From assembly GCA_041694835.1 (NCBI GenBank), contig JBGFRZ010000079.1, forward strand, positions 1 through 10,038: a stretch of 10,038 nt of DNA, given 5' to 3'. This stretch comes from Ignavibacteria bacterium. Lineage in GTDB: Bacteria; Elusimicrobiota; Endomicrobiia; PHAN01. Below the pieces are notes generated by a model that worked only from the letters and a program-made list of their open reading frames with translations, was not told where the DNA came from and ran no database searches. This document shows positions 1 to 9,907 of the stretch, piece after piece. Made by a program: the position numbers and the translations under genes. How positions within the stretch are numbered: position 1 is the stretch's first letter; the number at the start of each line of letters is the position of its first letter.

Positions 1-126
1 AAGTTGAAATCGTTTAGACCGCAATGTCCGACGAGCAAAGCGAGGAGTTTTGCGGTCTGATTGAAACTTTTAACCGTTAAGAAACTGCCCTTTAAGTGAA
101 AAAGATGGGTTTTTCAACAATCTCAT
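1..126. mobile_element. Probable partial MITE/REP-like element with internal hairpin and terminal-repeat-like end
   Basis: Stem AGACCGCAA (16-24) / TTGCGGTCT (50-58), extended by AATC/GATT and AAGTT/AACTT. Ends in GGGTTTTTCAACAATCTCAT (107-126), which recurs inverted at 9922-9941. No transposase is visible. Confidence 0.5.
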
Positions 127-189
127 CATACATCATAGCGGTATTGCAAAATCCTTACCCAATGTTACAACAACATTTGGAGAAGAGCC

Positions 190-1380
190 TTATTTATTGT
201 CTGCCGCCTTTTTTAAAGCAACGGTTTTTTCAATTGATAATTTTAATAGTTCGGCACCACTCATTATTTTTTTGCCATTATCGTAGACCGATACTCTTTC
301 CGTGCAGCAGTAACAAGGGTCAACGGCAGCAAGGCAGATTGCAGCATCCGAGACCGTCTGCTCGAGGGTGGATTTTTCATTCGTCGGCACATTCATATAA
401 CTTGGCGCCCTTATTTTATGTCTGACGGGTCTGTTGGTCCCGTCGGAACGCACATAGTGAAACACCTCGCCTCTGGGCGCTTCGTGGCGGCCTATTCCTT
501 CGCCAGGCGGTATTGTTTTTACGCATGCATCTATTTCACCACTGACGGTTTTTAGTTTTTCAAAACACTGCGTAAGAATTTTGATTGATTCATACATCTC
601 AAGCACTCTGACTATAAGTTTATCAAAAATATCGCCGTTTTCGCATACTATCACTTTCCAGTCGACAAGAGGATATGCTGCATAGGGTTCGTCTCTTCGC
701 ACATCTATATCTACTCCCGAAGCGCGGGCCGTCGGACCAAGGGCGCAGTAATTTAGTATGTCATCTTTTGTAAGCACTCCGACACCTTTTGTTCTTGAAT
801 GTATAGTTGGGTCATCCATTACCGCTCCTTTAAACATATCAAGAACGGGAATCAGTTTTTTGATTTCGGCTATATAATTTGTGAGACCGTTATCAGGGAT
901 ATCTCTTCTTACCCCTCCGATTTTAAACATTGCATAGTGTTGACGATTGCCCGAAATTTCTTCAAGAATGTCGAGGAGGGTCTCGCGATGTTTCCACGAC
1001 CACATCCAGACAGTGTTGTATCCGAGAAAGTGCCCCGCAAGACCCAGCCACAAGAGATGCGAGTGAACTCGTTCCAACTCGCCGATTATCGTCCTGATAT
1101 ATTTTGCTCTTGTCGGAATTTCAATTCCCGCCAAATCCTCAACGGCGTTTACATAAGCAAAAGGATGACTTGTAGAACAGATTCCGCAAATTCTTTCGAC
1201 TAAAAACGTCACCTGGTCAAAATGTTTTGACTCGGAGAGTTTTTCAATTCCTCTGTGATTGTAACCGATTTCAATATCAAGTTTTTTAACCACTTCCCCT
1301 TCAACATGGAGTTGGAAAAACTCCGGCTCTTCCTGCAAAGGATGATATGGCCCGATTGGGATAATTGTTCTATTTTCCAT
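190..1380 (-). CDS. Group 4 membrane-bound [NiFe]-hydrogenase large subunit (EchE/MbhL/HycE-like, NuoD fold)
   Basis: 396 aa. N-terminal GPYHP..EEP, GYNHRGIEK, L1 motif ERICGIC, ELERVHSHL, EAPRGE, and L2 motif DPCYCCTER. All four Ni-binding Cys are present. A 34-aa C-terminal tail follows the L2 Arg. Confidence 0.95.
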   Translation of the reverse strand: MENRTIIPIGPYHPLQEEPEFFQLHVEGEVVKKLDIEIGYNHRGIEKLSESKHFDQVTFLVERICGICSTSHPFAYVNAVEDLAGIEIPTRAKYIRTIIGELERVHSHLLWLGLAGHFLGYNTVWMWSWKHRETLLDILEEISGNRQHYAMFKIGGVRRDIPDNGLTNYIAEIKKLIPVLDMFKGAVMDDPTIHSRTKGVGVLTKDDILNYCALGPTARASGVDIDVRRDEPYAAYPLVDWKVIVCENGDIFDKLIVRVLEMYESIKILTQCFEKLKTVSGEIDACVKTIPPGEGIGRHEAPRGEVFHYVRSDGTNRPVRHKIRAPSYMNVPTNEKSTLEQTVSDAAICLAAVDPCYCCTERVSVYDNGKKIMSGAELLKLSIEKTVALKKAADNK

Positions 1381-1386
1381 AAAATC

Positions 1387-1496
1387 AGTATGTAGTATGT
1401 AGTAGGTAGTATGTAGGGAACGGATGTCAAAAAAAAGGGGAAGCAGTAAGGGGATGAGGTATTCCCAATACCCTGCCTACTACATACTACCTACTA
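1387..1496. repeat. Inverted array of 7-mer tandem repeats (AGTA[T/G]GT)
   Basis: Four units at 1387-1414 and three reverse-complement units at 1475-1495. 1400-1416 and 1480-1496 are a perfect 17-bp inverted repeat. Confidence 0.95.
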
Positions 1497-1924
1497 TCTC
1501 CTTGTCTCAAAGGATACTCGCCTTCCGGCCAGTCGTCCGGCAATAAAAGCCGTTTCAAGTTCGGGTGTCCAATGAAGTTTACGCCAAACATCTCGTGGAT
1601 TTCTCTCTCTATCCAGTCAAACGCCTTGCCGAGCGGAGTCAGCGACTGTATTTCAGGATTTTTTTTGTCTTTTAAAAAAACCTTGATGGTTATAAACGCG
1701 CCTGTTTTGTCGTCAGAAAAATGATAAAGTATTTCAAATGCTTCCCGGGTATCAACGCCCGTTGCGATTGAAAATCTTAAACCAAGTTGTCTGAAAAGAT
1801 ACTCTGCAATCTCATAGAGAACTTCTTTGTTTATTTCAACGTAATATCTTCGCTCGTTTTTTTTGAACGCTTTTATTATCCTGTCGGATTTTTCGGACAA
1901 TAATTTTTCTATTGCACTGTTCAT
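1487..1924 (-). CDS. NuoC-like (complex I 30 kDa) hydrogenase subunit (EchD/MbhK-like)
   Basis: 145 aa with ILYHF, WIEREIHEMFGVNFIGHP and RLLLPDDWPEGEYPLR, which are NuoC-family signatures. Directly upstream of the large subunit gene. Confidence 0.92.
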   Translation of the reverse strand: MNSAIEKLLSEKSDRIIKAFKKNERRYYVEINKEVLYEIAEYLFRQLGLRFSIATGVDTREAFEILYHFSDDKTGAFITIKVFLKDKKNPEIQSLTPLGKAFDWIEREIHEMFGVNFIGHPNLKRLLLPDDWPEGEYPLRQGDSR

Positions 1925-1931
1925 GAATTAT

Positions 1932-2366
1932 TCATTTATAAGTTTCCAAATAGAGCGAGATTTTTTCTATCCGTAAAAATATTTTTACACTTTTGTCTTT
2001 AATCTCTTCATAGAGGTCTTTGAGTTTTTCAGATGCGTATGTATGGACTATCTTGTTTTTCAGGATTCTTGCCTCCATCCAGAATTCTATCTCATCAATA
2101 AGATTTAATTTCTGTATCACCAGAAGTAGATTTCTTAATGTCTCGCTCGACTTAGAATAAAGAAATATCTCAAGTCCTTTGTAAAAGTTAAGAACAATTT
2201 CAACAACCTTCTCAAACCGAAACGAAAGAGAATCGTAGTACTCCATTTCTTCCGGCGTATACGAATGATTGGGATTATATGACTGAAATTTATCAATAGA
2301 TGCTTGAAGAAGTCGGGCTGCACCTTTTACATCTTCAAATTCCTTTAATATCAATTCTTTCTGCAT
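1932..2366 (-). CDS. HEPN-domain protein (HI0074-like nucleotidyltransferase partner, HepT-type toxin)
   Basis: 144 aa, helical character. DSLSFRFEK near the N-terminus and W..AR.LKNKIVHTY at the position of the RX4HXY motif (Arg replaced by Lys). Overlaps the upstream MNT gene by 32 nt. Confidence 0.8.
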   Translation of the reverse strand: MQKELILKEFEDVKGAARLLQASIDKFQSYNPNHSYTPEEMEYYDSLSFRFEKVVEIVLNFYKGLEIFLYSKSSETLRNLLLVIQKLNLIDEIEFWMEARILKNKIVHTYASEKLKDLYEEIKDKSVKIFLRIEKISLYLETYK

Positions 2367-2622
2367 TTCTTAAAACTTCCTTGGAAAACTCTCCCCCGTC
2401 ATAAACGACCACATCAATGTCTTCTTCTAATTGAGAAAAAAATTTTTTTTGCACTTCAAGGGATAATTTAACCGGATTGACCGCTTTTTCGGGGACTAAT
2501 AGAAGGTCAATATCTCCGCCATTTCTTTCTTTTTCGTTTCTTGAGCCAAAAATATACGCCTTGCCCTCAAATTTTTCCAGAGCAAACTTCAATGCTTTTT
2601 TCTCTTTTTCGTCAAGTCGCAT
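2335..2622 (-). CDS. Minimal nucleotidyltransferase (MNT, MntA-type antitoxin)
   Basis: 95 aa with YIFGSR...GGDIDLL (GS-x-DxD) and a third acidic residue in DIDVV. Paired with the downstream HEPN gene. Start overlaps the stop of the small-subunit gene by 11 nt. Confidence 0.88.
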   Translation of the reverse strand: MRLDEKEKKALKFALEKFEGKAYIFGSRNEKERNGGDIDLLLVPEKAVNPVKLSLEVQKKFFSQLEEDIDVVVYDGGEFSKEVLRNAERIDIKGI

Positions 2623-3031
2623 TGTTCAAAACCTTTATTAACTTTACAACTCCAGCAATCATCGCTTCTGGTTTCGGAGGACAGCCGGGGATATATGCAT
2701 GCACCGGAATTATTTTGTCAAGCGGCGAAACAACGTTGTAGGAGTCATGAAAAATTCCCAGTCCACACGAGCATGCTCCTATCGCTACTACAAAGCATGG
2801 TTTAGCCGATGCCTCATATAACTTTTTAATTTTTATTGCGGTTTTTTTATTTGGAACTCCTGTAACGAGCAATATGTCAGCATGGCGAGGACTTCCCACG
2901 AGTTGTATTCCAAATCTCTCTAAGTCGTATCTTGGCGTAAGGCAATCAAGAATTTCTATGTCACAATTATTGCAAGGACTTGTTGCCGCATGAAAGACGA
3001 ATAAAGATTTTGTAATATGTTTCGGATTCAT
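2612..3031 (-). CDS. Group 4 [NiFe]-hydrogenase small subunit (NuoB-like, EchC/MbhJ/HycG)
   Basis: 139 aa. CNNCDIE, SPRHADILLVTG, VAIGAC and IPGCPP supply four Cys for one [4Fe-4S] cluster. The CxxC spacing is hydrogenase-type rather than the CC of NuoB. Confidence 0.95.
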   Translation of the reverse strand: MNPKHITKSLFVFHAATSPCNNCDIEILDCLTPRYDLERFGIQLVGSPRHADILLVTGVPNKKTAIKIKKLYEASAKPCFVVAIGACSCGLGIFHDSYNVVSPLDKIIPVHAYIPGCPPKPEAMIAGVVKLIKVLNNAT

Positions 3032-3037
3032 AAACCC

Positions 3038-3238
3038 TTATATTTTTACATTTTTATAGACAAAGAATTTCTTTTTTGTATTTGTTCGACAAATCCCCCG
3101 CATTTCTTGAAGCCAATCAATGTATTCTTCAAAAGACATTTTTTTATGAGCGTGACGGCCTTTTCTGAAATGCAGCATCCGTTCTTTATTTCGGCCGTCT
3201 TCAAGCATCTCTTTTTTCTCAACTTCTGAAAGTATCAT
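3038..3238 (-). CDS. Small hypothetical protein, probable partner of the upstream nucleotidyltransferase
   Basis: 66 aa, charged, predicted helical (SFEEYIDWLQEM). ATGA start/stop overlap with the NTase gene. Fills the gap up to 6 nt before the small-subunit start. Confidence 0.7.
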   Translation of the reverse strand: MILSEVEKKEMLEDGRNKERMLHFRKGRHAHKKMSFEEYIDWLQEMRGICRTNTKKKFFVYKNVKI

Positions 3239-3768
3239 TTCGTTCTTGCCAAAATTTCGTCAAATTCTTTTTCTCTCTCGAATAATTTGAAATATTCTCT
3301 CACAAGTTCTAAATCCAGATTTTTGATATTCGCGACAATGTCTTCAATATCGGCCATATCTTTATGGTATCTCCGGGGGTCGTTGGAACTTGACTGAACT
3401 TTTAGCCCTATTAAATCTTCGGGTCTTGCGATTTTTATTTTGAATCCAAAAATCTTTTTCGTCTCCGCTCTTTTCAATATCTCCAAAGCATATTTTCTAT
3501 TGGCGAATAAAAAATCCACATCGCCAAAGTCGGCAAGTTGAGACGAATAATTTGCCGCATCCTGCGTTTTATGAAAGGCCCGATAGCCATATTTTTCCAT
3601 AATGTCGTCGACGGCGTTCGCTTGTTTCAACAATACAACAAAATCAATATCAACCGTCATGCGTTCTACTCCGGCAAAACTTAAAGCGTGTCCGCCAATC
3701 AAAGCAAAATCAATTCCGTTTTTCTGAAATTCGTTAATTAAAATTTCAAAGACCTTTTTGAAGTTCAT
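3235..3768 (-). CDS. Pol-beta superfamily nucleotidyltransferase (AbiEii/DUF1814/DUF6036-like)
   Basis: FALIGGHAL...RMTVDIDF, VDF, PEDLIGLK and KDMADI motifs. I prefer the ATG at 3768 (MNFKKVF, 177 aa) over the ORF-track start at 3786. Confidence 0.85.
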   Translation of the reverse strand: MNFKKVFEILINEFQKNGIDFALIGGHALSFAGVERMTVDIDFVVLLKQANAVDDIMEKYGYRAFHKTQDAANYSSQLADFGDVDFLFANRKYALEILKRAETKKIFGFKIKIARPEDLIGLKVQSSSNDPRRYHKDMADIEDIVANIKNLDLELVREYFKLFEREKEFDEILARTK

Positions 3769-3791
3769 AGAAACCCGAAAAATCAAAAACG

Positions 3792-4697
3792 TTACAAACC
3801 AAGCAACGCCAGAAACAATGCAACGAGTCCGAGCGGCACGCCATAACCCCAGAAAAATTTTAAAATACTATCAATTCTTAAACGAGGATTTGTATTTCTA
3901 ACCAAAGTAAAAATCACAACGATTATAAGATATTTTAAGAAAAAGAGCAAACTCTGTGACGGAAAAAACAAGATGATAGCGAGCATTGGAAGTGCTGCAA
4001 GTAGTATTGTTTTGGTAATTCTCCATAATGCAAGCAATGCCCCCGAATACTCCATATAGACGCCACCTGCAATTTCTGTTTCGGCTTCTGCTATATCAAA
4101 AGGCACCAACCCAAGTTTTGCTATAGAAACAGTCAGCATTATAACAAACGCTATAAATCCTGAAAGTGAAAACAGTAGTGAGCCGTGAATGTTTTGATAG
4201 TTTATAATATCACCAATGGATACAGAATTAGTTCTTAATATCACGGTAATTATACTCAATATGAAAACAAACTCATAGGACAGCAGAAGTTTGATTTCTC
4301 TTGAAGCACCAACGACCGACAGAGGATTACCCGAAGATAGAGCGCCCAGAATTAGCATAATTGGCGGAATCATAAGAAGATATATCAGAAGTATAATATC
4401 GCCATTGAAAGTCCTCATTCCCATTAGTGCCATTCCCAAAATCATTGCTACGATAGTGACTACCGACATAGATACTACCGGGCTTCCGACGAATATCCAG
4501 TACGATGCATTTTTAGGAACCGTTATTTCTTTGGCAAAAAGTTTTCTTATATCATAGTACGGTTGAAGGAATGGAGGGCCCACGCGGCATTGCACGAGTG
4601 CCGTCAGTTTCCTGTCAATCCATGAAGTTAATAATCCTAGTGTTAAGATGAAAACAAAACCAGGAAAGATAAATAAATTAAACAAAAAGTTCAACAT
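3792..4697 (-). CDS. NuoH-like membrane subunit (EchB/HycD/MbhM-like)
   Basis: 301 aa with many hydrophobic segments. DRKL.A.VQ.RVGPP, GASRE, SYE, PFDIAEAETEIAGG...EYSG and PRLRID are complex I subunit 1 signatures. Confidence 0.95.
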   Translation of the reverse strand: MLNFLFNLFIFPGFVFILTLGLLTSWIDRKLTALVQCRVGPPFLQPYYDIRKLFAKEITVPKNASYWIFVGSPVVSMSVVTIVAMILGMALMGMRTFNGDIILLIYLLMIPPIMLILGALSSGNPLSVVGASREIKLLLSYEFVFILSIITVILRTNSVSIGDIINYQNIHGSLLFSLSGFIAFVIMLTVSIAKLGLVPFDIAEAETEIAGGVYMEYSGALLALWRITKTILLAALPMLAIILFFPSQSLLFFLKYLIIVVIFTLVRNTNPRLRIDSILKFFWGYGVPLGLVALFLALLGL

Positions 4698-4700
4698 ATG

Positions 4701-5174
4701 TTACTTCTTCTCCCAAACTATTGTTTTTATCGCCAAGTGCTCATTTAGAACATATATATTGTTTGCAACATCTTCCGTAACTTCTGTGTATTTTAACGCT
4801 TTGTGGGGACAAGTATCAACACATTCTGGCGCAACTACATCTTTTCTGCCGACACACCAATCGCATCCCGAAGTTTTAAATGATAATATGTCTGAATAAA
4901 TGGTGCCAAAAGGACACGCCGCCATACAACTTTTGCAACTTGTGCAAAGCATTGAGTGTCTTTCAAGAATACCGTTTTTGTTTTTCTCCAACGCCTTATT
5001 CGGACATGAGTTTATACAAAAAGATTCTTCGCATCTTCGACATATCAGAAATTGGCAACCTTTTGCGAGCGCTTTTTCAATTCCGTTGTTTTGAATATGA
5101 TAGTAATAAGAACATCCCGCTTCGCATTTTTTACATTTATAGCAAATTTCCAAATCAACTAAAAGTTTTTTCAT
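4701..5174 (-). CDS. 4x[4Fe-4S] electron-transfer protein (HycB/CooF/HydN/DmsB-like)
   Basis: 157 aa with four Cys groups: CxxCxxCxxxC, CxxCxxxxCxxxCP, CxxCxxCxxxCP and CxxC...CxxxCP. Ends 3 nt before the NuoH-like start. Confidence 0.9.
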   Translation of the reverse strand: MKKLLVDLEICYKCKKCEAGCSYYYHIQNNGIEKALAKGCQFLICRRCEESFCINSCPNKALEKNKNGILERHSMLCTSCKSCMAACPFGTIYSDILSFKTSGCDWCVGRKDVVAPECVDTCPHKALKYTEVTEDVANNIYVLNEHLAIKTIVWEKK

Positions 5175-5191
5175 AACTTTCTTAAAAAACG

Positions 5192-5322
5192 AGCGAATAG
5201 TGAATAGAGATGAGAGGTCAGAGGTCAGAGGTGAGAGATGAGAGGTGAGAGATGAGTTTTTTCTCTGTCCCCCGTTCTCTGTTCTCTGTTCCCTGAACTC
5301 TGACCTCTGACCACTGTCCTCT
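5192..5322. repeat. Inverted array of 7-mer tandem repeats (AGAG[G/A]T[C/G])
   Basis: Seven units at 5206-5254, preceded by AGCGAAT AGTGAAT. Eight GACCTCT/GTTCTCT-like units at 5267-5322. 5216-5230 and 5298-5312 are a perfect 15-bp inverted repeat. Confidence 0.95.
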
Positions 5323-5324
5323 AA

Positions 5325-5705
5325 TTATGTATTATCCAGGATAATTCTTATTATGTCGTGCCGACTGACTACGCCCACTACTTTATTATATTCATCGACT
5401 ATAACTACCCGCCTGAATTTCTTTTCCGATATAACGAGTGATATTTTGTCGATATCGGAGTCGGGCAAAAAACTTACCACATTTTTTGTCATCACATCGG
5501 AAACTTTCGTCGTTCTTGAATTGCCGCTGAAAACAAGGTTCAAGACATCGTTTTCGGTTATTATTCCGACAAGTTTGTTTTCGCTGTCCACCACGGGCAG
5601 ACCGCTGACCCTTTTATTATAGAGAAGATTTACGGCATCGTAAATCGTTTCATCGGGTCCGATGGTTATGACGTCTTGAGTCATTATATCTTTTGCTCTC
5701 AGCAT
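5325..5705 (-). CDS. Stand-alone tandem CBS-domain protein
   Basis: 126 aa with two CBS repeats (DIMT...LPVVD...GIITEND and DVMT...VIVD...GVVSRHD). GGAGG RBS upstream. Confidence 0.93.
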   Translation of the reverse strand: MLRAKDIMTQDVITIGPDETIYDAVNLLYNKRVSGLPVVDSENKLVGIITENDVLNLVFSGNSRTTKVSDVMTKNVVSFLPDSDIDKISLVISEKKFRRVVIVDEYNKVVGVVSRHDIIRIILDNT

Positions 5706-5709
5706 AAAA

Positions 5710-5714
5710 CCTCC
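5710..5714 (-). promoter_or_regulatory. Shine-Dalgarno site of the CBS gene
   Basis: Minus strand reads GGAGG-TTTT-ATG. It is the clearest canonical SD in the cluster. Confidence 0.7.
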
Positions 5715-5717
5715 AGG

Positions 5718-5782
5718 GAAGGTTAAAGGTGCAAGGTATAAGGTTAAAATTCAAAACTCTTTAACCTTTAACCTTCAACCTC
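5718..5782. repeat. Inverted array of 7-mer tandem repeats (AAGGTTA)
   Basis: AAGGTTA AAGGTGC AAGGTAT AAGGTTA at 5719-5746 and TAACCTT TAACCTT CAACCTC at 5762-5782. 5718-5730 and 5764-5776 are a perfect 13-bp inverted repeat. Confidence 0.92.
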
Positions 5783-5784
5783 TC

Positions 5785-6612
5785 TCATACAAACGGGTCG
5801 CGTATATGTTTTATCTGCTCATAAGTGAAAACCGGACCATCTTTGCAGATAAAAAACTCTCCCAACTGACAGTGCCCGCATTTTCCCAAACCGCATGACA
5901 TATTCGCTTCCATTGAAAGATAGATATTGGCAGGTGCGAAACCCTTTTCAAGCAGTTTAAGAGTTGAAAATTTCATCATTACAGGCGGTCCGCAGACAAC
6001 TGCGATGCTGCTGTGAACTATATCCATTTTAAGATGGTCGAGCAAACAAGTAACAAGCCCCACTTGCCCGTCCCATTGAATATCTACGGGACAGATGTCG
6101 ACACTTTTAAGAACCTCCAGACGATTTTCTTTTTCCCACTCGGGAAACATATATTTATAGACGACATCATCGGGGGTTTTGGAGCCGTAAGCAAGAATAA
6201 TTTTTTTGAAATTTGTCAAATCGTGAAGAAGCGTAAGCAGAAAACTCCTCAAAGGAGCCATCCCCACGCCACCGCCAAGAATAAGTATTTCTTTGCCGAA
6301 AAATTTTTCTACGGGATAACTTGTCCCATAAGGTCCTCTAATTCCAAGTTTTTCTCCGCCTTTCATCTTATGTAAAACTCCAGTTACAAATCCTGCTTCC
6401 ATAATAGTTATTTCTATCAAGTCGGTCTTGTAAGGATTTGACGACGGCGTAAACGGCGCCTCGCCGATGCCCGGCACCGCGAGTTCAACGAACTGACCTG
6501 TTTTGAACTTAAAAGGTTCAAGTGGTCTGATGACAAAAGTTTTGATATTTTTTGTTTCATCAATAACTTTTTCAAGTATACATTCTATCGGTTGATAAAT
6601 ATGTTTTTTCAT
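5785..6612 (-). CDS. FAD/NAD(P)-binding [2Fe-2S] oxidoreductase (AsrB / sulfhydrogenase gamma HydG / FlxA-like)
   Basis: 275 aa FNR fold. GQF, GEAPFTPSS, RGPYG, GGGVGMAP, VCGPPVMM and C-terminal MSCGLGKCGHC...CKDGPVF. Confidence 0.92.
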   Translation of the reverse strand: MKKHIYQPIECILEKVIDETKNIKTFVIRPLEPFKFKTGQFVELAVPGIGEAPFTPSSNPYKTDLIEITIMEAGFVTGVLHKMKGGEKLGIRGPYGTSYPVEKFFGKEILILGGGVGMAPLRSFLLTLLHDLTNFKKIILAYGSKTPDDVVYKYMFPEWEKENRLEVLKSVDICPVDIQWDGQVGLVTCLLDHLKMDIVHSSIAVVCGPPVMMKFSTLKLLEKGFAPANIYLSMEANMSCGLGKCGHCQLGEFFICKDGPVFTYEQIKHIRDPFV

Positions 6613-6615
6613 ATA

Positions 6616-6675
6616 AATTACGAATGTTTAATGACGAATAACTCATAGCAAAATCCATCATTCGTCATTCGTTAT
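6616..6675. repeat. Degenerate inverted array of 7-mer repeats (AATGACG)
   Basis: AATTACG AATGTTT AATGACG AATAACT at 6616-6643, with inverted units at 6656-6675. 6630-6639 and 6660-6669 are a perfect 10-bp inverted repeat. Confidence 0.7.
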
Positions 6676-7656
6676 GCGTTGTAAAGATTCCCGTATATCA
6701 ATTTTTGCAGGACAAACTTCTATACATCTCCCGCATCCACTACAGGCATAATTTCCAAAGTTTTTTTTTCGATAAATCATCTTACAATTATACAAATTTT
6801 GTAACCGCTGAAATTTTTCTTTTCTCGGGTTGGCGCCACCCGCTACACGGCCATAACCCGCCGATTGGCAGGAATCCCACGTGCGTATTTTACTATAAAA
6901 ATCTTTAGTCTCGCCAAGTAAAAAGCAATAACAACTTCCACACACGTATCTGCAGCCATCGCATTCCACGCAACTTTTTGCTATTTCATCTTTCCAAAGT
7001 TTTGAAACCATATTTTTTTCAACAGTCATCAATGGCTCTTCCCATTTGAATTTTTCATTTTGTTTTTTTACTTTTTCGGTTAAGTCTTTGCGATTTTTTT
7101 CTTTCTCATGGAGTTGTTGTTCAATCGCTTTTTGGAAAAGATTGGGAGATTGTCTTATGAGTTCTTCGCCGATATTTGAAACACAATCTACAACGTACCC
7201 TTCTTTTATGGGAGAAAGATTTATGTCGTAGTTTTTTTGGGGATATGGGGTGATGTCCATTTTAGTGCAGAAACAACTGAGCTTGCAATCTGTACAATCG
7301 GATGAAATTATAAGAGCGTCACTTCTTTTGTGTTTATAGAAATCATCGGCAAACATTCCTTCTAAAAATATTTTATCCGAAGTATTAAGTAAATGCAAAT
7401 CGCATGACTTGGGACCGACAATCGCTAACGGATGTGATTTAATGTCAGATAAAAACTCTTGCACGGGGAAGAAAAATTGTTTAATTGATGTTATGGAACG
7501 ATACTTGCCTATATTTATTAATCCAACCGTTTCAGTAGTGTAGCGATCCCAATAAAAATTTCCAGTTTCCTCTCTCAAAGCATAAATTGCTCTTGACGAA
7601 AGAAGTTTAAGCATGAATCTGTGTATGTTGTGATTATTAATAAAAAATTGGTTCAT
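6658..7656 (-). CDS. 4Fe-4S dicluster protein (AsrA / sulfhydrogenase beta HydB / FlxCD-like)
   Basis: 332 aa with KQFFFP, SCDL, C...CFC, CVECDGCRYVCGSCYC, RTWDSC and CSGCGRCIEVCP. Adjacent to its usual AsrB-type partner. Confidence 0.9.
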   Translation of the reverse strand: MNQFFINNHNIHRFMLKLLSSRAIYALREETGNFYWDRYTTETVGLINIGKYRSITSIKQFFFPVQEFLSDIKSHPLAIVGPKSCDLHLLNTSDKIFLEGMFADDFYKHKRSDALIISSDCTDCKLSCFCTKMDITPYPQKNYDINLSPIKEGYVVDCVSNIGEELIRQSPNLFQKAIEQQLHEKEKNRKDLTEKVKKQNEKFKWEEPLMTVEKNMVSKLWKDEIAKSCVECDGCRYVCGSCYCFLLGETKDFYSKIRTWDSCQSAGYGRVAGGANPRKEKFQRLQNLYNCKMIYRKKNFGNYACSGCGRCIEVCPAKIDIRESLQRITNDE

Positions 7657-8834
7657 ATACTAACGAAAGTTTGGTAAGTTTCTCTTGCCAGAAGGATTCC
7701 TGATGATCTGGAAAATACAAAGACCTTTATTTTGGAATCGTCAGAAGTTATCGTTGAATCTTTGGGAATACATTCATCATTTTTGAAATTGGCAATCAAT
7801 ATACCAAATTTTTCTAAATTTTCAAAAATTCTTTTTCTGATATATGGAATCCCTTCGGCGATTTTACCTGTTAATGATATAGCGTCTAATTCAGGCATCT
7901 GAAGCCAATAAGCCCCGATAAATTTCCTGATACTGTAAACGAACATATCAACGGCAAGTTTGCATCTTTTGTTTCCTTGAACAGCAAATTTTACAACTTC
8001 TTTTAAATCATCGCCTTCACCACAAACCCCTACAACACCACTCTCCTTAAACAAAATTCTCTCAACATCTTCAATACTCCATCCCATTTTAAGCAGATAG
8101 ATTACAACCGACGGGGATATATCCCCTGAACGAGTCGTCATCATAAGCCCTGATAGTGGTGTAAATCCCATTGAGGTGTCGGTAGATTTCCCCCTTTTTA
8201 TCATTGTAATGCTAGAGCCATCTCCCAAATAACAAGATATCATGTTGACTTCTGAAACAGTTTTATCAAGATATTGGGCGGTTTTTTCAAGCAGGTATTT
8301 ATGAGAAAGTCCGTGAAAGCCGTATCGTTTTATTTTGTAATCATTGTAAAATCTTTCAGGAATCGGGTATCTGTATGCGACTTCCGGCATCGTGGAATGA
8401 AAAGCGGTGTCAAATATCGCTATTTGTTTGATGGTCAGAAATTCTTTTATTGAGGCATCGATTATTTTTAAGTTGTAAGGATTGTGAATAAAAGCAATGT
8501 TTATGTCCTTGTAGATTTTTTGTTTCACCGCTTCATCAATAATTGTAGGTTTGTCAAAGTCCATACCATGAACCACTCTATGACCGGCCACTTCAATTTT
8601 TTCATACAAATTGTTCTTTTTTAAGACCTCAACTATGTTAACAAATGCTTCCTCGTGAGTTAAAGATTTTCTTATGGCTTTACTGAGCGGGGTGTCTTTT
8701 TTTCTAATGGTAATAACAGAGTTTTCCGTTCCGATACTATTGACATTTCCTTCTAATAGCAACACCTCTTCCGGCATCTCCCATACGGCAAAATCTATTG
8801 AGTTTATTCTTGAGTTAAATATTAGTATTTTCAT
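7653..8834 (-). CDS. ackA: Acetate kinase family protein with degenerate nucleotide-binding motifs
   Basis: GHRVVHG, HNP, FDTAFH, RYGFHGLSH and DTSMGFTPL.G....RSGD are present. I prefer the ATG at 8834 (MKILIFN, the usual AckA N-terminus, 393 aa). The ORF-track GTG at 8855 lies inside a repeat. ATGA overlap with the AsrA-like gene. Confidence 0.85.
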   Translation of the reverse strand: MKILIFNSRINSIDFAVWEMPEEVLLLEGNVNSIGTENSVITIRKKDTPLSKAIRKSLTHEEAFVNIVEVLKKNNLYEKIEVAGHRVVHGMDFDKPTIIDEAVKQKIYKDINIAFIHNPYNLKIIDASIKEFLTIKQIAIFDTAFHSTMPEVAYRYPIPERFYNDYKIKRYGFHGLSHKYLLEKTAQYLDKTVSEVNMISCYLGDGSSITMIKRGKSTDTSMGFTPLSGLMMTTRSGDISPSVVIYLLKMGWSIEDVERILFKESGVVGVCGEGDDLKEVVKFAVQGNKRCKLAVDMFVYSIRKFIGAYWLQMPELDAISLTGKIAEGIPYIRKRIFENLEKFGILIANFKNDECIPKDSTITSDDSKIKVFVFSRSSGILLARETYQTFVSI

Positions 8835-8849
8835 TTGATAGTAAAACTC

Positions 8850-8911
8850 AACCACGAATTACACGAATTTTACGAAGGTTTTTATTTGTTTAATTCATTC
8901 AATTCGTAGTT
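8850..8911. repeat. Inverted array of 9-mer tandem repeats (CACGAATTA)
   Basis: CACGAATTA CACGAATTT TACGAAGGT at 8853-8879 and degenerate inverted units TATTTGTTT AATTCATTC AATTCGTAG at 8883-8909. Outer ends 8850-8860 and 8901-8911 match at 10/11. Confidence 0.8.
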
Positions 8912-8965
8912 CTATTTTTAAACCCACTTCTACAACAAAACTTTAAAGAACCGTAATCGCTAAAG

Positions 8966-9907
8966 TTATAAAGTTTTCTTGGATAAATCGGAGATTATTT
9001 TTTTAAGAGTTTTTAAAGACTCTGGATGATAAACTACAACGATGTCCGCTCCGCTTTCTAAATACCCCGAACCACAGCAGATTTCCCAGAAGATTCCGCG
9101 TTTCTCAAAATCGCCCCATGACGGCATTTCCTCATTAGTAGTAATTGACTCCTTCAATTTCCAACACTCTACACCGACGAAGTTAATCATAGGCATAGAC
9201 ATCATTTTATCACCGCTTAACCCCGCCAGCCGTGTTCGTTCCATTATTGTATAGCAGTATTCATATCCGTAGCCCAATGCTCCCGTTGTCTGATGCATTA
9301 CTATTTTTTCCGTGGAAAAACCGGTGTCTGCAATAAGAATGTTGAGTTGTTTTGCGAGATTGATATCAAGAGGGGTCTCTGCTATTATTGAGTGTCCGTC
9401 TGCAAGTGCACTTATGGCGATTGTTTTATAGTTATCTTTTGTGGCCATACCAACCAATGCGTTTTTTCCTTTGATGGAAGCACTTACCGTAGGAAGTACC
9501 TCGGTATTTTTTTGCGTAGATTCGCATCCTAATACAATTATCGGAATTTCTATGGAATCAGCGATATTTTTTACTGTCTTTGCAACCTCCTCAGCACTTT
9601 TATTTTTTCCTTCCGGATGAGCGCCTGTCAACCTGATGCACAAAAATTCAGCGCCTAAATCCTGACATTTCACCGCCCATTTAACGGGGTCATTAAAGAC
9701 ATCCTGCCATTCCCTTTTTAAGGGTGCGGGCCAGTGTTCGGGAGCAACGTCGGATATTTCTATGGCGACTTTTGGAAAATTCGGAATGACGCCTTCTTCA
9801 TAAATAAAAGGCAATGCGTTCTGTCCTCCGATTTTTACAGACAAATCACCTGCGCCAAGGACAATTTCGTTAATCTTTGACTGCCATTTTTCAAGATGTT
9901 TTTCCAT
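8966..9907 (-). CDS. acsD: Corrinoid iron-sulfur protein small subunit / acetyl-CoA decarbonylase-synthase delta subunit
   Basis: 313 aa with IGGQNALPF, DPVKWAVKC, PLDINLAKQLN, TGALGYGYEY.Y..MER.RLA.L.GD and WE.......L.SGADI....HP, all AcsD/CdhD signatures. Confidence 0.95.
   Translation of the reverse strand: MEKHLEKWQSKINEIVLGAGDLSVKIGGQNALPFIYEEGVIPNFPKVAIEISDVAPEHWPAPLKREWQDVFNDPVKWAVKCQDLGAEFLCIRLTGAHPEGKNKSAEEVAKTVKNIADSIEIPIIVLGCESTQKNTEVLPTVSASIKGKNALVGMATKDNYKTIAISALADGHSIIAETPLDINLAKQLNILIADTGFSTEKIVMHQTTGALGYGYEYCYTIMERTRLAGLSGDKMMSMPMINFVGVECWKLKESITTNEEMPSWGDFEKRGIFWEICCGSGYLESGADIVVVYHPESLKTLKKIISDLSKKTL

Follow-up and report, generated by a model that had tools for sequence, protein, structure and literature searches.

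Tandem-heptamer palindromes at five junctions of a respiratory-type operon: probable gene-less copies of a genome-wide insertion element

Five intergenic fillers were found in a respiratory-type operon on a window of 10,038 nt (the whole stretch of DNA that was analysed), which belongs to a 1.9 Mb, 97%-complete, metagenome-derived genome in 89 contigs. We consider that they are probably gene-less copies of small palindromic insertion elements spread throughout this genome, whose frame also packages TIGR02436 (four-helix-bundle) genes. The arms of the elements are tandem 7-nt units (8- or 10-nt units elsewhere), and the purine-rich arm comes first on either strand.

The minus-strand cluster was listed as cdhD, ackA, Fer4_22 (sulfhydrogenase-beta-like), FNR-like, CBS, and nuoI-, nuoH-, nuoB-, nuoC- and nuoD-like genes, with gene contexts based on crude ORF calls, and without its two inserted pairs (Table 1) it was conserved at 20 loci in 18 relatives. 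Gaps longer than 40 nt were located at 1381-1486, 5175-5324, 5706-5784, 6613-6657 and 8835-8965, with the ackA start set at the ATG at 8834. No ORF of at least 60 aa was present in these gaps, and none of the 14 TIGR02436 matches in the genome lay inside the window. All five gaps had an inverted repeat with the purine-rich arm first (by sequence inspection) and a loop of 11-63 nt, and the first arm abutted the upstream stop codon in four of them (J5 was the exception).

Table 1. Positions of the operon, its inserted gene pairs and the five junction fillers in the window
Feature	Location	Position	Strand	Description	Evidence
Host cluster		190-9907	minus	respiratory-type operon	ORFs, Pfam, NCBIfam
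Inserted pair 1		1932-2622		nucleotidyltransferase/HEPN-type pair	
Inserted pair 2		3038-3786		nucleotidyltransferase/HEPN-type pair	
J1	nuoC/nuoD junction	1387-1496		gene-less hairpin	TRF, inverted arms, fold
J2	CBS/nuoI junction	5205-5323		composite nested hairpin	TRF, inverted arms, fold
J3	FNR-like/CBS junction	5718-5781		hairpin, AAGGTTA-type units	TRF, inverted arms, fold
J4	Fer4_22/FNR-like junction	6617-6675		small hairpin, 2+2 ACGAATG units	TRF, inverted arms, fold
J5	cdhD/ackA junction	8843-8918		imperfect hairpin, CACGAA-type words	inverted arms

Tandem 7-mer arms and a hairpin were clear at J1, J2 and J3. At J1, TRF detected a purine-rich array (AGTATGT/AGTAGGT x4.3, 1387-1416) and a second, complementary array (x2.7, 1478-1496) with a loop of about 60 nt between them, the arms being complementary over 34 nt at 82% and over 17 nt at 100%; on the minus (coding) strand, the last four codons of nuoC (GDSR) and its TAG stop come from the first arm. 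J2 begins 0-2 nt past the CBS stop codon (minus strand) and has AGAGGTC/GACCTCT as its outer pair, inner arrays of AGAGATG/AGAGGTG on the left and TTCTCTG on the right, and T6 in the centre (TRF rows 5206-5256 with AGAGGTG x7.3, 5261-5295, and 5293-5322; arms of 48 nt, 75% complementary). The first arm of J3 starts at the TGA that ends the FNR-like gene (minus strand), and the ribosome-binding site GGAGG of the CBS gene lies directly outside the hairpin; one TRF row was obtained (5759-5781, CTTTAAC x3.3), the left arm (5718-5748) was detected as an inverted partner only, and the arms are complementary over 18-22 nt at 82-89%. J4 had a sole TRF row (6658-6672, TCATTCG x2.1, score 30) and arms of 23 nt (74% complementary), the first of which contains the final codons of the Fer4_22 gene together with its TGA stop (minus strand). 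J5 had stems of 12 and 7 bp (minus strand), arms of 34 nt (71% complementary) and weak tandem periodicity, gave no TRF row at a score of at least 30, and is likely a diverged member of the genome's CACGAAAA/CACGAAAT period-8 family, whose members have near-identical loops. RNA folds were compared with 200 shuffles on both strands, and the z scores (minus/plus) were -4.45/-4.89 for J1, -4.65/-4.35 for J2, -3.78/-4.24 for J3, -3.07/-1.35 for J4, and -1.70/-1.55 for J5. The initial annotation had described tandem plus inverted arrays with periods of 7, 7, 7, 7 and 9 in these gaps; the inverted repeats were indeed found in all five and the 7-mers are clear at J1-J3, but J4 has 2+2 units (x2.1) and the period-9 array of J5 was not recovered.

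Beyond the window, the period-7 enrichment that had been expected was found: TRF rows at a score of at least 40 numbered 384 in the real genome vs 0 in a dinucleotide shuffle, and the counts were 141 vs 0 for period 8, 64 vs 2 for period 10, and 4 vs 0 for period 6. The period-9 enrichment expected with it was not borne out (8 vs 2, and J5 has no tandem array). The proposed shared layout (period 7 or 8, inverted arms, purine-rich first arm) proved to be a genome-wide rule, and the purine-first polarity was observed in 83 of 94 gene-less hairpins, with R..RY..Y order in 112 of 122 mixed clusters. A reverse-complement partner was located at most 150 nt downstream of 112 of the 1355 arrays (11 for the reversed control and 21 for the complement control), and nesting was seen in 38 of 40 clusters that had at least four arrays (6.2 expected). 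About one in six gene junctions contained an array (~282/1691), with 18% of co-directional vs 9% of convergent or divergent junctions occupied (Fisher p 2e-4). Solo sense-strand purine arrays were located at a median of 7 nt past the upstream gene end, and the median distance of arrays to the next start codon was 67-72 nt. The purine-strand unit contained a stop codon in 322 of 475 period-7 arrays, an excess that is near the composition expectation (63/97 vs 56.6 +/- 3.7, reached by 28 of 500 shuffles).

All five window units fall in unit families that recur in the genome, where the same units are present at tens of loci and roughly a dozen recurrent families have homologous dispersed copies. 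Across its non-repetitive centre, J2 has copies at C9:10886, C62:32760 and C28:56978 with identities of 96%, 92% and 91%, respectively. The AGTATGT-family copies have the inner boundary sequences GGGRA/YCCC and the core of the loop (ACGGATKT) in common, and the homology of J1 to other loci covers the arms plus this short core. Matches of J5 were limited to one arm (19-29 nt at four other loci), BLAST found no copy of J3 or J4 elsewhere in the genome, and the AATGACG unit of J4 formed three arrays genome-wide. The fillers had been called sequence-diverse and defined by geometry rather than sequence; their units do differ and the layout is shared, but the recurrent families and the J2 copies make the latter description an overstatement.

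The TIGR02436 genes provide the link to cargo. As had been suggested in the initial annotation, they are flanked by such arms: 12 of the 13 in this genome sit between inverted tandem arms, and the 13th has its upstream arm and lies on a contig that stops 125 nt past its stop codon. In these cassettes the ORF has the purine-rich arm directly before its start codon and the pyrimidine-rich arm after its stop. Broken genes account for three of the 13, and no small cargo other than TIGR02436 genes was found between arms of this kind in this genome. Among relatives, 19 of 38 four-helix-bundle genes passed a strict inverted-14-mer test. The single GxxExxY gene, for which 9-mer arms had been suggested, does have inverted flanking motifs, which are not 9-mer arrays but a 10-mer-type motif in 2+2 copies about 22 nt apart. 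In public collections, loci with the same arrays seldom adjoined a four-helix-bundle ORF (2 of 80 in genomes, 1 of 80 in metagenomes), and most of these loci had no partner arm under strict arm motifs; array density and four-helix-bundle gene count were weakly correlated (Spearman 0.28, p 0.13; 30 relatives, 7-40 kb samples). In the AGTAGAT family, three of six gene-less loops retain the final 18-24 nt of the ORF (0-2 of 300 shuffles reach the score). These remnants point to descent of gene-less from gene-bearing forms, shown in this way for the AGTAGAT family only, and the window families may have the same origin. The suggestion of "empty cassettes" gains from the AGTAGAT remnants and from a gene-bearing cassette in a relative, described below, but not from the AGTATGT and AGAGGTG types: AGAGGNN and AGTATGT, the two largest families that include window units, have no gene-bearing copy in this genome.

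Orthologous junctions were occupied differently in relatives and strains. In the sister genomes G001 and G002, the junctions corresponding to J1, J3 and J4 were overlapping or at most ~25 nt long (nuoC and nuoD overlap at the place of J1; the G001 spacers are 41 nt at J2 and 25 nt at J3), and different hairpins (AGTGGAT, AGTAGAT) were found in their genus at other junctions of the same operon. The relative G020 has a four-helix-bundle cassette at the orthologous nuoC/nuoD point, after the same PLR codons of nuoC, with AGTAGCG/AGTAGTC arms that have the AGTAG core in common with J1; a small gene between arms at such a junction was what the initial annotation had proposed to look for. Length and presence variants had also been predicted and were found in metagenome run X1, where one contig with 9 differences in 256 nt (~96% identical) is without J3, 15 other letters replacing the 64 nt 5717-5780. 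An X1 contig skips 6625-6673 (J4), with a short side of 38 nt, and X1 contigs of greater divergence either replace or skip J1 and J4. By these sequence comparisons, the window elements are derived insertions, and elements of this class turn over quickly in this genome.

We presume the following course of events. An element would insert, as DNA, between two cistrons, where it would abut or cover the stop codon of the upstream gene and sometimes take the place of the last codons of that gene, as is seen here; copies would then spread to other junctions, as is evident for J2 and the AGTATGT family. Replication slippage would lengthen and shorten the arms, and new elements would settle in the centre of older ones, which would give the nested stacks observed. 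Gene-bearing copies would decay to gene-less ones, as seen in the AGTAGAT family and probably also in the window families. Tolerance of the elements would come from the stop codons that are usually present in the purine-rich arm and that, with a period not divisible by 3, occur in every reading frame; in addition, about 60 nt before the next start codon would stay free. Long stems in the polycistronic RNA may be cut by RNase III, like the stem of the ORF-bearing 23S rRNA intervening sequence (IVS), and an RNase III gene (rnc) is present in the genome. On this reading, the elements are selfish or near-neutral DNA and not operon-specific regulators; neither a transposase nor a target duplication or excision product was identified for them.

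An alternative that is unlikely, although it has to be taken seriously, is that the arrays are simple-sequence repeats which grew in place by slippage and are locally palindromic, that the four-helix-bundle genes are later lodgers, and that the window elements never moved or had cargo. Arms can be unequal and mixed in unit variants (3.7 vs 13 units at C6:3751/4150), the excess of heptamers in bacteria has been ascribed to slippage (work cited in PMC4692102), most arrays, both here and in the public collections, are without a neighbouring gene, neither J3 nor J4 has a second copy in the genome, and the link between array density and gene count is weak. Slippage alone, however, predicts neither strict purine-first polarity nor nesting, and the identity of the J2 copies over a non-repetitive centre, the common boundary and loop core of the AGTATGT family, the ORF remnant in AGTAGAT loops, and identical units at tens of loci all argue against it. 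It is improbable that the fillers are host-selected RNA structures of the operon (intercistronic processing sites, stabilisers, attenuators or terminators by which subunit ratios are tuned), since conservation is lacking: in the sister genus and another 17 relatives, these junctions have different fillers or none. Strong stems directly past stop codons at co-directional junctions, the presence of RNase III and the better folding of J4 on the sense strand would fit such a role, but genome-wide the sense strand was more stable in 33 and less stable in 48 of 81 hairpins (p 0.08), none of the five fillers coincides with a terminator-like site (GC stem plus T run), and Rfam gave sub-threshold microRNA-hairpin noise only.

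Small non-coding palindromes at operon junctions, which form mosaics, sometimes overlap ORF ends and are non-autonomous relatives of gene-bearing elements, are known as REP/BIME, REPIN-RAYT and Correia/RPE MITEs. The present elements are likewise intergenic, palindromic, mosaic and multi-copy, and one Y1_Tnp gene exists in the genome, yet mobilisation by a REP-associated tyrosine (Y1) transposase is very improbable: this gene (C41:8757-9467) is flanked by its own GGGGACGGTCCTC-type inverted repeats instead of heptamer arrays, a single gene would need to act on at least a dozen unit families, and arms of tandem short-period arrays are not a REP feature. Those classes differ from the elements here, for which neither an associated transposase nor terminal inverted repeats with a target duplication were seen. 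Chance similarity or an assembly artefact would be conceivable in a metagenome-derived genome of 89 contigs, as tandem arrays are prone to mis-assembly and J5 is statistically weak; we regard it as almost negligible in view of the shuffle controls (arrays, folds, inverted partners), the consistent flanks within the 10-kb contig, the independent X1 contigs that diverge from the window exactly at element boundaries, and the same architecture in relatives. The earlier exclusion of REP copies, CRISPR repeats and terminators was upheld: besides the different Y1_Tnp flanks, none of 12 terminator-like sites falls in J1-J5, and the 7-nt head-to-tail units have no spacers, in contrast to the 24-48 nt repeats and unique spacers of CRISPR arrays. 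A 23S rRNA IVS was also rejected (protein-coding flanks, no rRNA match in the window), as was the gene-bearing cassette form for J1-J5, which have no TIGR02436 ORF between their arms.

Intergenic tandem heptamers are also found in the cyanobacterial STRR repeats, which are comparable to the TAACTGA-type repeats. The latter, as described in PMC4679880, are heptamer direct repeats of Beggiatoaceae, Cyanobacteria and Bacteroidetes that are abundant, intergenic and patchy across phyla; some overlap the upstream ORF end, forward-orientation units contain stop codons, and almost all are direct arrays just upstream of start codons, with only one inverted case reported, whereas inverted pairing is the rule in this genome. 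The GGGAATC arrays of Xanthomonas are described in PMC4692102 as intergenic and as lying, in most cases, between co-oriented ORFs and closer to the upstream one, with 70-75 cases of two arrays converging on opposite strands (possible stem-loops) and with array length differing between close relatives. The window resembles that account in its convergent heptamer pairs between co-oriented ORFs, nearer the upstream ORF. That study examines one G-rich unit for its G-quadruplex formation, and the term "S23" was not found in a search of its text; the elements here differ in their many units, in their nested stacks and in a frame that also surrounds four-helix-bundle genes. In the 23S rRNA IVS of Coxiella burnetii, according to the description in PMC4990558, a four-helix-bundle (S23p) ORF is enclosed by a long stem of complementary termini, and heptamers in tandem (GACAGAT x2-3, strain-variable in number) lie just upstream of its start; the IVS, whose ORF is in decay, is considered selfish, and RNase III cuts within the stem of this heptamer-bearing IVS, and excision is reported. 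The window elements differ in that they lie between protein-coding genes and have no ORF, and their arms are wholly tandem units of a dozen or more families, with nesting.

Further, we tentatively suggest, as a possibility, that the class is a cross-phylum mobile cassette in which a pentameric four-helix-bundle (Avd/S23p-type) protein recognises its own arm units, while gene-less copies are non-autonomous and kept or spread in trans in the manner of MITEs. If true, this would explain the long-noted heptamer excess in bacterial genomes and would give the orphan four-helix-bundle family a function, and RNase III would be led by the stems to cleave operon mRNAs at the colonised junctions.

The fillers J1 to J5, which occupy the nuoC/nuoD, CBS/nuoI, FNR-like/CBS, Fer4_22/FNR-like and cdhD/ackA gaps, respectively, belong to a dense population of palindromic junction elements with fast turnover, and their frame (a purine-rich tandem array, or arm, followed by a complementary pyrimidine-rich one) is common to the cassettes of four-helix-bundle (TIGR02436, S23p-type) genes. 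All genes of the window lie on the minus strand (ORFs, Pfam, NCBIfam), exactly five gaps of the cluster exceed 40 nt, and an inverted repeat fills each of the five, as the initial annotation had stated. The cdhD/ackA gap is likewise the one it took: the ORF list starts ackA at a GTG at 8855, inside the J5 hairpin, and because the shorter form, which begins at the ATG at 8834 (MKILIFNS...), is covered by the NCBIfam ackA model from residue 1 onwards, the real gap is 8835-8965.

Genes of the cluster and tandem arrays of its junction elements (Tandem Repeats Finder, TRF)
Feature	Positions	Strand	Remark
cdhD	8966-9907	minus	1st in transcription order
ackA	7653-8834	minus	2nd in transcription order
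Fer4_22 gene, sulfhydrogenase-beta-like	6658-7656	minus	3rd in transcription order
FNR-like gene	5785-6612	minus	4th in transcription order
CBS gene	5325-5705	minus	5th in transcription order
nuoI-like gene	4701-5174	minus	
nuoH-like gene	3792-4697	minus	
Inserted nucleotidyltransferase/HEPN-type pair	3038-3786		
nuoB-like gene	2612-3031	minus	
Inserted nucleotidyltransferase/HEPN-type pair	1932-2622		
nuoC-like gene	1487-1924	minus	
nuoD-like gene	190-1380	minus	
J1 arrays	1387-1416, 1478-1496		period 7
J2 arrays	5206-5256, 5261-5295, 5293-5322		period 7
J3 array	5759-5781		one arm
J4 array	6658-6672		2.1 copies, barely supported

The tandem-array layout that had been proposed for all five elements stands for J1, for J2 (a nested stack of purine-rich then pyrimidine-rich arrays) and for one arm of J3, is barely visible at J4, and does not extend to J5, which has no TRF row, so that the period of 9 claimed there is not borne out. 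Fold z-scores (200 shuffles) were -3.8 to -4.9 on both strands for J1-J3, -3.07 on the sense strand only for J4 and about -1.6 for J5. Because of the TRF support and the fold scores together, J1-J3 are clear, J4 is modest and J5 is weak. A terminator scan of the window found no site within any of the five junctions, in agreement with the earlier view that they are not U-tailed terminators, and an Rfam scan of the window gave no family match, only sub-threshold microRNA-like hairpin matches at J1, J2 and J5.

The two inserted pairs sit seamlessly between nuoC and nuoB and between nuoB and nuoH (gaps of 3-7 nt, without arms) and are toxin-antitoxin-like; in one, a Pol-beta nucleotidyltransferase accompanies an NTase_sub_bind/HEPN-like protein, and in the other a DUF2204/AbiEii-like nucleotidyltransferase accompanies a 66-aa ORF. 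The operon is conserved at 20 loci in 18 genomes of the class, both pairs are always absent there, and none of their four proteins was found at any of these orthologous loci. The contig itself begins within a high-copy repeat (window 1-189; 73 BLAST matches, mostly at 96-99% identity), whose full copies of about 185 nt carry terminal inverted repeats of the type ATGAGCTCGTTGAAAAACC...GGTTTTTCAACAATCTCAT and have a MITE-like look; a second repeated segment (window 127-189) comes after this repeat at some loci.

The window corresponds to contig C59 of a genome of 1.9 Mb in 89 contigs (G000), in which we counted TRF rows at a score of at least 40 against a shuffled genome. Periods 7 (384 vs 0), 8 (141 vs 0), 10 (64 vs 2) and 14 (144 vs 14) were in excess, and periods 6 (4 vs 0) and 9 (8 vs 2), both multiples of 3, were not enriched in this comparison; the enrichment at periods 7 and 9 for which a genome-wide scan had been suggested is thus present for 7 and absent for 9. 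A reverse-complement partner lay at most 150 nt downstream of 112 of 1355 arrays, vs 11 and 21 in two composition-keeping controls. By our own crude ORF calls, a strong period-7/8 array occupies 282 of 1691 gene junctions (about 1 in 6), namely 257/1419 co-directional vs 25/272 convergent or divergent ones (Fisher p 2e-4). The purine-rich-arm-first polarity described for the window is a genome-wide rule, found in 83 of 94 gene-less hairpins, and all purine-rich arrays precede all pyrimidine-rich ones in 112 of 122 mixed clusters. The elements nest: 38 of the 40 clusters of at least four arrays are nested, vs 6.2 expected under label shuffling. Stacked arrays keep this order also when their middle layers lack mutual complementarity (for example C56:26619-26828).

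The units group into roughly a dozen recurrent families, those of the window among them (AGTATGT, 18 arrays genome-wide; AGAGGTG, AGAGGTC and AGAGATG, 55 together; AAAGGTT, 5; AATGACG, 3). Sense-strand purine arrays begin a median of 7 nt downstream of the upstream gene's end, and about 67-72 nt are left between arrays and the next start codon. Of 97 distinct units, 63 have a stop codon on the purine strand and 18 on the opposite one; with letter-shuffled units giving 56.6 +/- 3.7, the purine-strand excess beyond composition is marginal only. Orientation-specific selection on the RNA is counted against by the folding comparison, in which the sense strand had no advantage over the antisense (33 vs 48 of 81, p 0.08). 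An ORF at C28:56625-57161 has a repeat-encoded low-complexity start (QRTEDRGQ... type) followed by HisF-like sequence, and therefore heptamer arrays can sit in frame within a gene.

Some element families disperse as copies. The non-repetitive centre of J2 recurs at C9:10886-10960 (96% over 75 nt), C62:32760-32671 (92% over 90 nt) and C28:56978-57057 (91%), and AGTATGT-family members have a common inner boundary, GGGRA...YCCC, and the loop core ACGGATKT. For J3 and J4 no second copy was found in the genome, and matches to J5 elsewhere in it are confined to the arms. We rejected a REP-associated (RAYT) link: the sole IS200/Y1-type transposase gene (C41:8757-9467) is bracketed by its own, unrelated inverted repeats (AATTGGGGACGGTCCTCAATT and complement), not by heptamer arrays.

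The junction elements are insertions. In the sister genus (G001, G002), nuoC and nuoD overlap, and at FNR/CBS and Fer4_22/FNR the genes either overlap or have some 25 nt between them; by this comparison, the window's elements are derived insertions. The same sister-genus operon carries AGTGGAT or AGTAGAT hairpins at nuoH/nuoB and nuoI/nuoH. Contigs of one groundwater metagenome run (X1) depart from the window precisely where the elements lie: a contig with 9 differences over 256 nt carries 15 nt where J3 has 64 nt; at J1, 150 nt are swapped for 120 other letters; and at J4, 49 nt are skipped, with a short side of 38 nt. These contigs, which are of low depth, were placed at an 80% threshold and compared over the window parts with X1 cover. 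The elements abut, and sometimes rewrite, upstream gene ends: those of the window start at or on the upstream stop codon, and purine-rich arms are read as the C-termini of nuoC (1487-1500) and the Fer4_22 protein (6658-6675), nuoC ending in ...PLRQ-GDSR*, with its last four codons and stop from the array, where G001 has ...PLRQNQNDSK*.

A small gene between arms at an orthologous junction, as had been anticipated, is present in G020, a genome of another family, whose nuoC/nuoD junction encloses a four-helix-bundle gene flanked by AGTAGCG/AGTAGTC arms on one side and complementary arms on the other. The insertion point there follows the same PLR codons of nuoC, with the arm providing the TAG stop; a second cassette lies at the FNR/nuoI junction of G020. 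Common descent of the window and G020 fillers at nuoC/nuoD seems less likely than parallel insertion at a favoured point, because near relatives of both lineages are without these fillers. Other fillers of the same operon in relatives are GGGGG/CCCCC-rich hairpins at every junction (L013, G012), 180-240-nt elements with CATTGCGA...GCAATCTC motifs (L016, G009; L011, G002), and a 595-nt nuoB/nuoC insert (L021, G018, 4227-4821) of about nine tandem 33-nt coding repeats (GACAAACGTTTTGAACAAGT-type), which is a small repeat-protein ORF and not a four-helix-bundle gene.

G000 has 14 TIGR02436 matches in 13 genes, the highest count among 41 genomes of its class (others 0-5). The suggestion that such arms flank these genes holds here, as inverted tandem arms enclose 12 of the 13 and the thirteenth has its upstream arm on a contig that ends 125 nt past the stop. 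In gene orientation, 0-5 nt separate the end of the purine-rich arm from the start codon, and the pyrimidine-rich arm comes after the stop or overlaps it; at C81:10795-11106 translation runs into the gene's own pyrimidine-rich arm, which yields the protein's C-terminus (...SRATSHEPL). An in-frame TGA breaks one copy, frameshifts another and a lost start a third. Four-helix-bundle genes are the sole small cargo among purine-first arm pairs 150-1000 nt apart, the other ORFs there being ordinary genes or repeat-derived reading frames. The single GxxExxY gene, for which 9-mer arms had been suggested, is instead bracketed by inverted copies of a AAACACAGAT-type motif, the unit of the period-10 family. 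Among relatives, 19 of 38 evaluable four-helix-bundle genes pass a strict criterion, a best inverted 14-mer that exceeds the maximum reached in 30 shuffles, and two more lie at contig edges. In small and related samples of 7-40 kb each from 30 relatives, the correlation of array density with the number of four-helix-bundle genes was weak and non-significant (rho 0.28, p 0.13), with any strong array in 2 of 12 genomes without the gene vs 8 of 18 with it. That arm similarity tracks protein identity across taxonomic families is suggestive only (rho 0.10, reached by 92 of 2000 permutations; median identity 0.52 for near-identical-arm pairs vs 0.33 overall).

One family, AGTAGAT, decayed from gene-bearing to gene-less: 3 of its 6 gene-less hairpin loops align to the final codons plus stop of the ORF in the gene-bearing C8 copy, a stretch of 18-24 nt next to the arm on its inner side, with scores reached by only 0-2 of 300 shuffled loops, the other three being at null level. 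The derivation of gene-less cassettes from gene-bearing ones is therefore supported for this family and is a proposed one for the window's own families; G000 has no AGTATGT- or AGAGGNN-armed gene. Gene-bearing copies with AGTAGGT-type arms exist elsewhere and are rare; among the matches listed, a J1- or J2-type array adjoins a four-helix-bundle ORF at 2 of 80 genome loci (L114, L145) and 1 of 80 metagenome loci (L307). Raw counts of public AGTAKGT and AGAGGTS matches, which are lower bounds, carry no weight, a uniform model expecting hundreds for an 18-mer in 596 Gb. In a strict-motif partner search, most of these loci, among the matches listed, had one arm type only; by eye, several partner arms are built from variant units, and regular expressions thus undercount them.

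Related arrangements are known. Inverted heptamer array pairs of one unit are described in Xanthomonas (PMC4692102), direct TAACTGA arrays in Beggiatoaceae, Cyanobacteria and Bacteroidetes (PMC4679880), and tandem heptamers upstream of the S23p ORF in the Coxiella intervening sequence, an order like that of the gene-bearing frame here (PMC4990558). In the openly accessible literature covered, we found no work tying heptamer arms to four-helix-bundle/S23p genes outside rRNA. We propose that arms would grow by slippage and that the elements may be tolerated through the free initiation region and through stops that are frame-independent, since no period is a multiple of 3. RNase III may cut the RNA stems, on the model of the Coxiella intervening sequence; an rnc gene is present in the genome.

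Many bacterial genomes carry an excess of heptamer repeats, the cause of which is, to our knowledge, still open; the TIGR02436/S23p family is widespread, and we know of no function for it. This genome joins the two at very high density, with about one sixth of junctions occupied, under strict layout rules (period 7, 8 or 10 and not 6 or 9, purine-rich arm first, nesting, stop-codon abutment), and one operon junction is gene-less here and gene-bearing in a relative. Candidate links are thereby opened up: a putative binding of arms by the protein, the decay from gene-bearing to gene-less cassettes, and a putative RNase III processing of operon mRNA. Further, essential respiratory-type operons tolerate repeated invasion of their intercistronic joints, up to rewritten nuoC and Fer4_22 C-termini.
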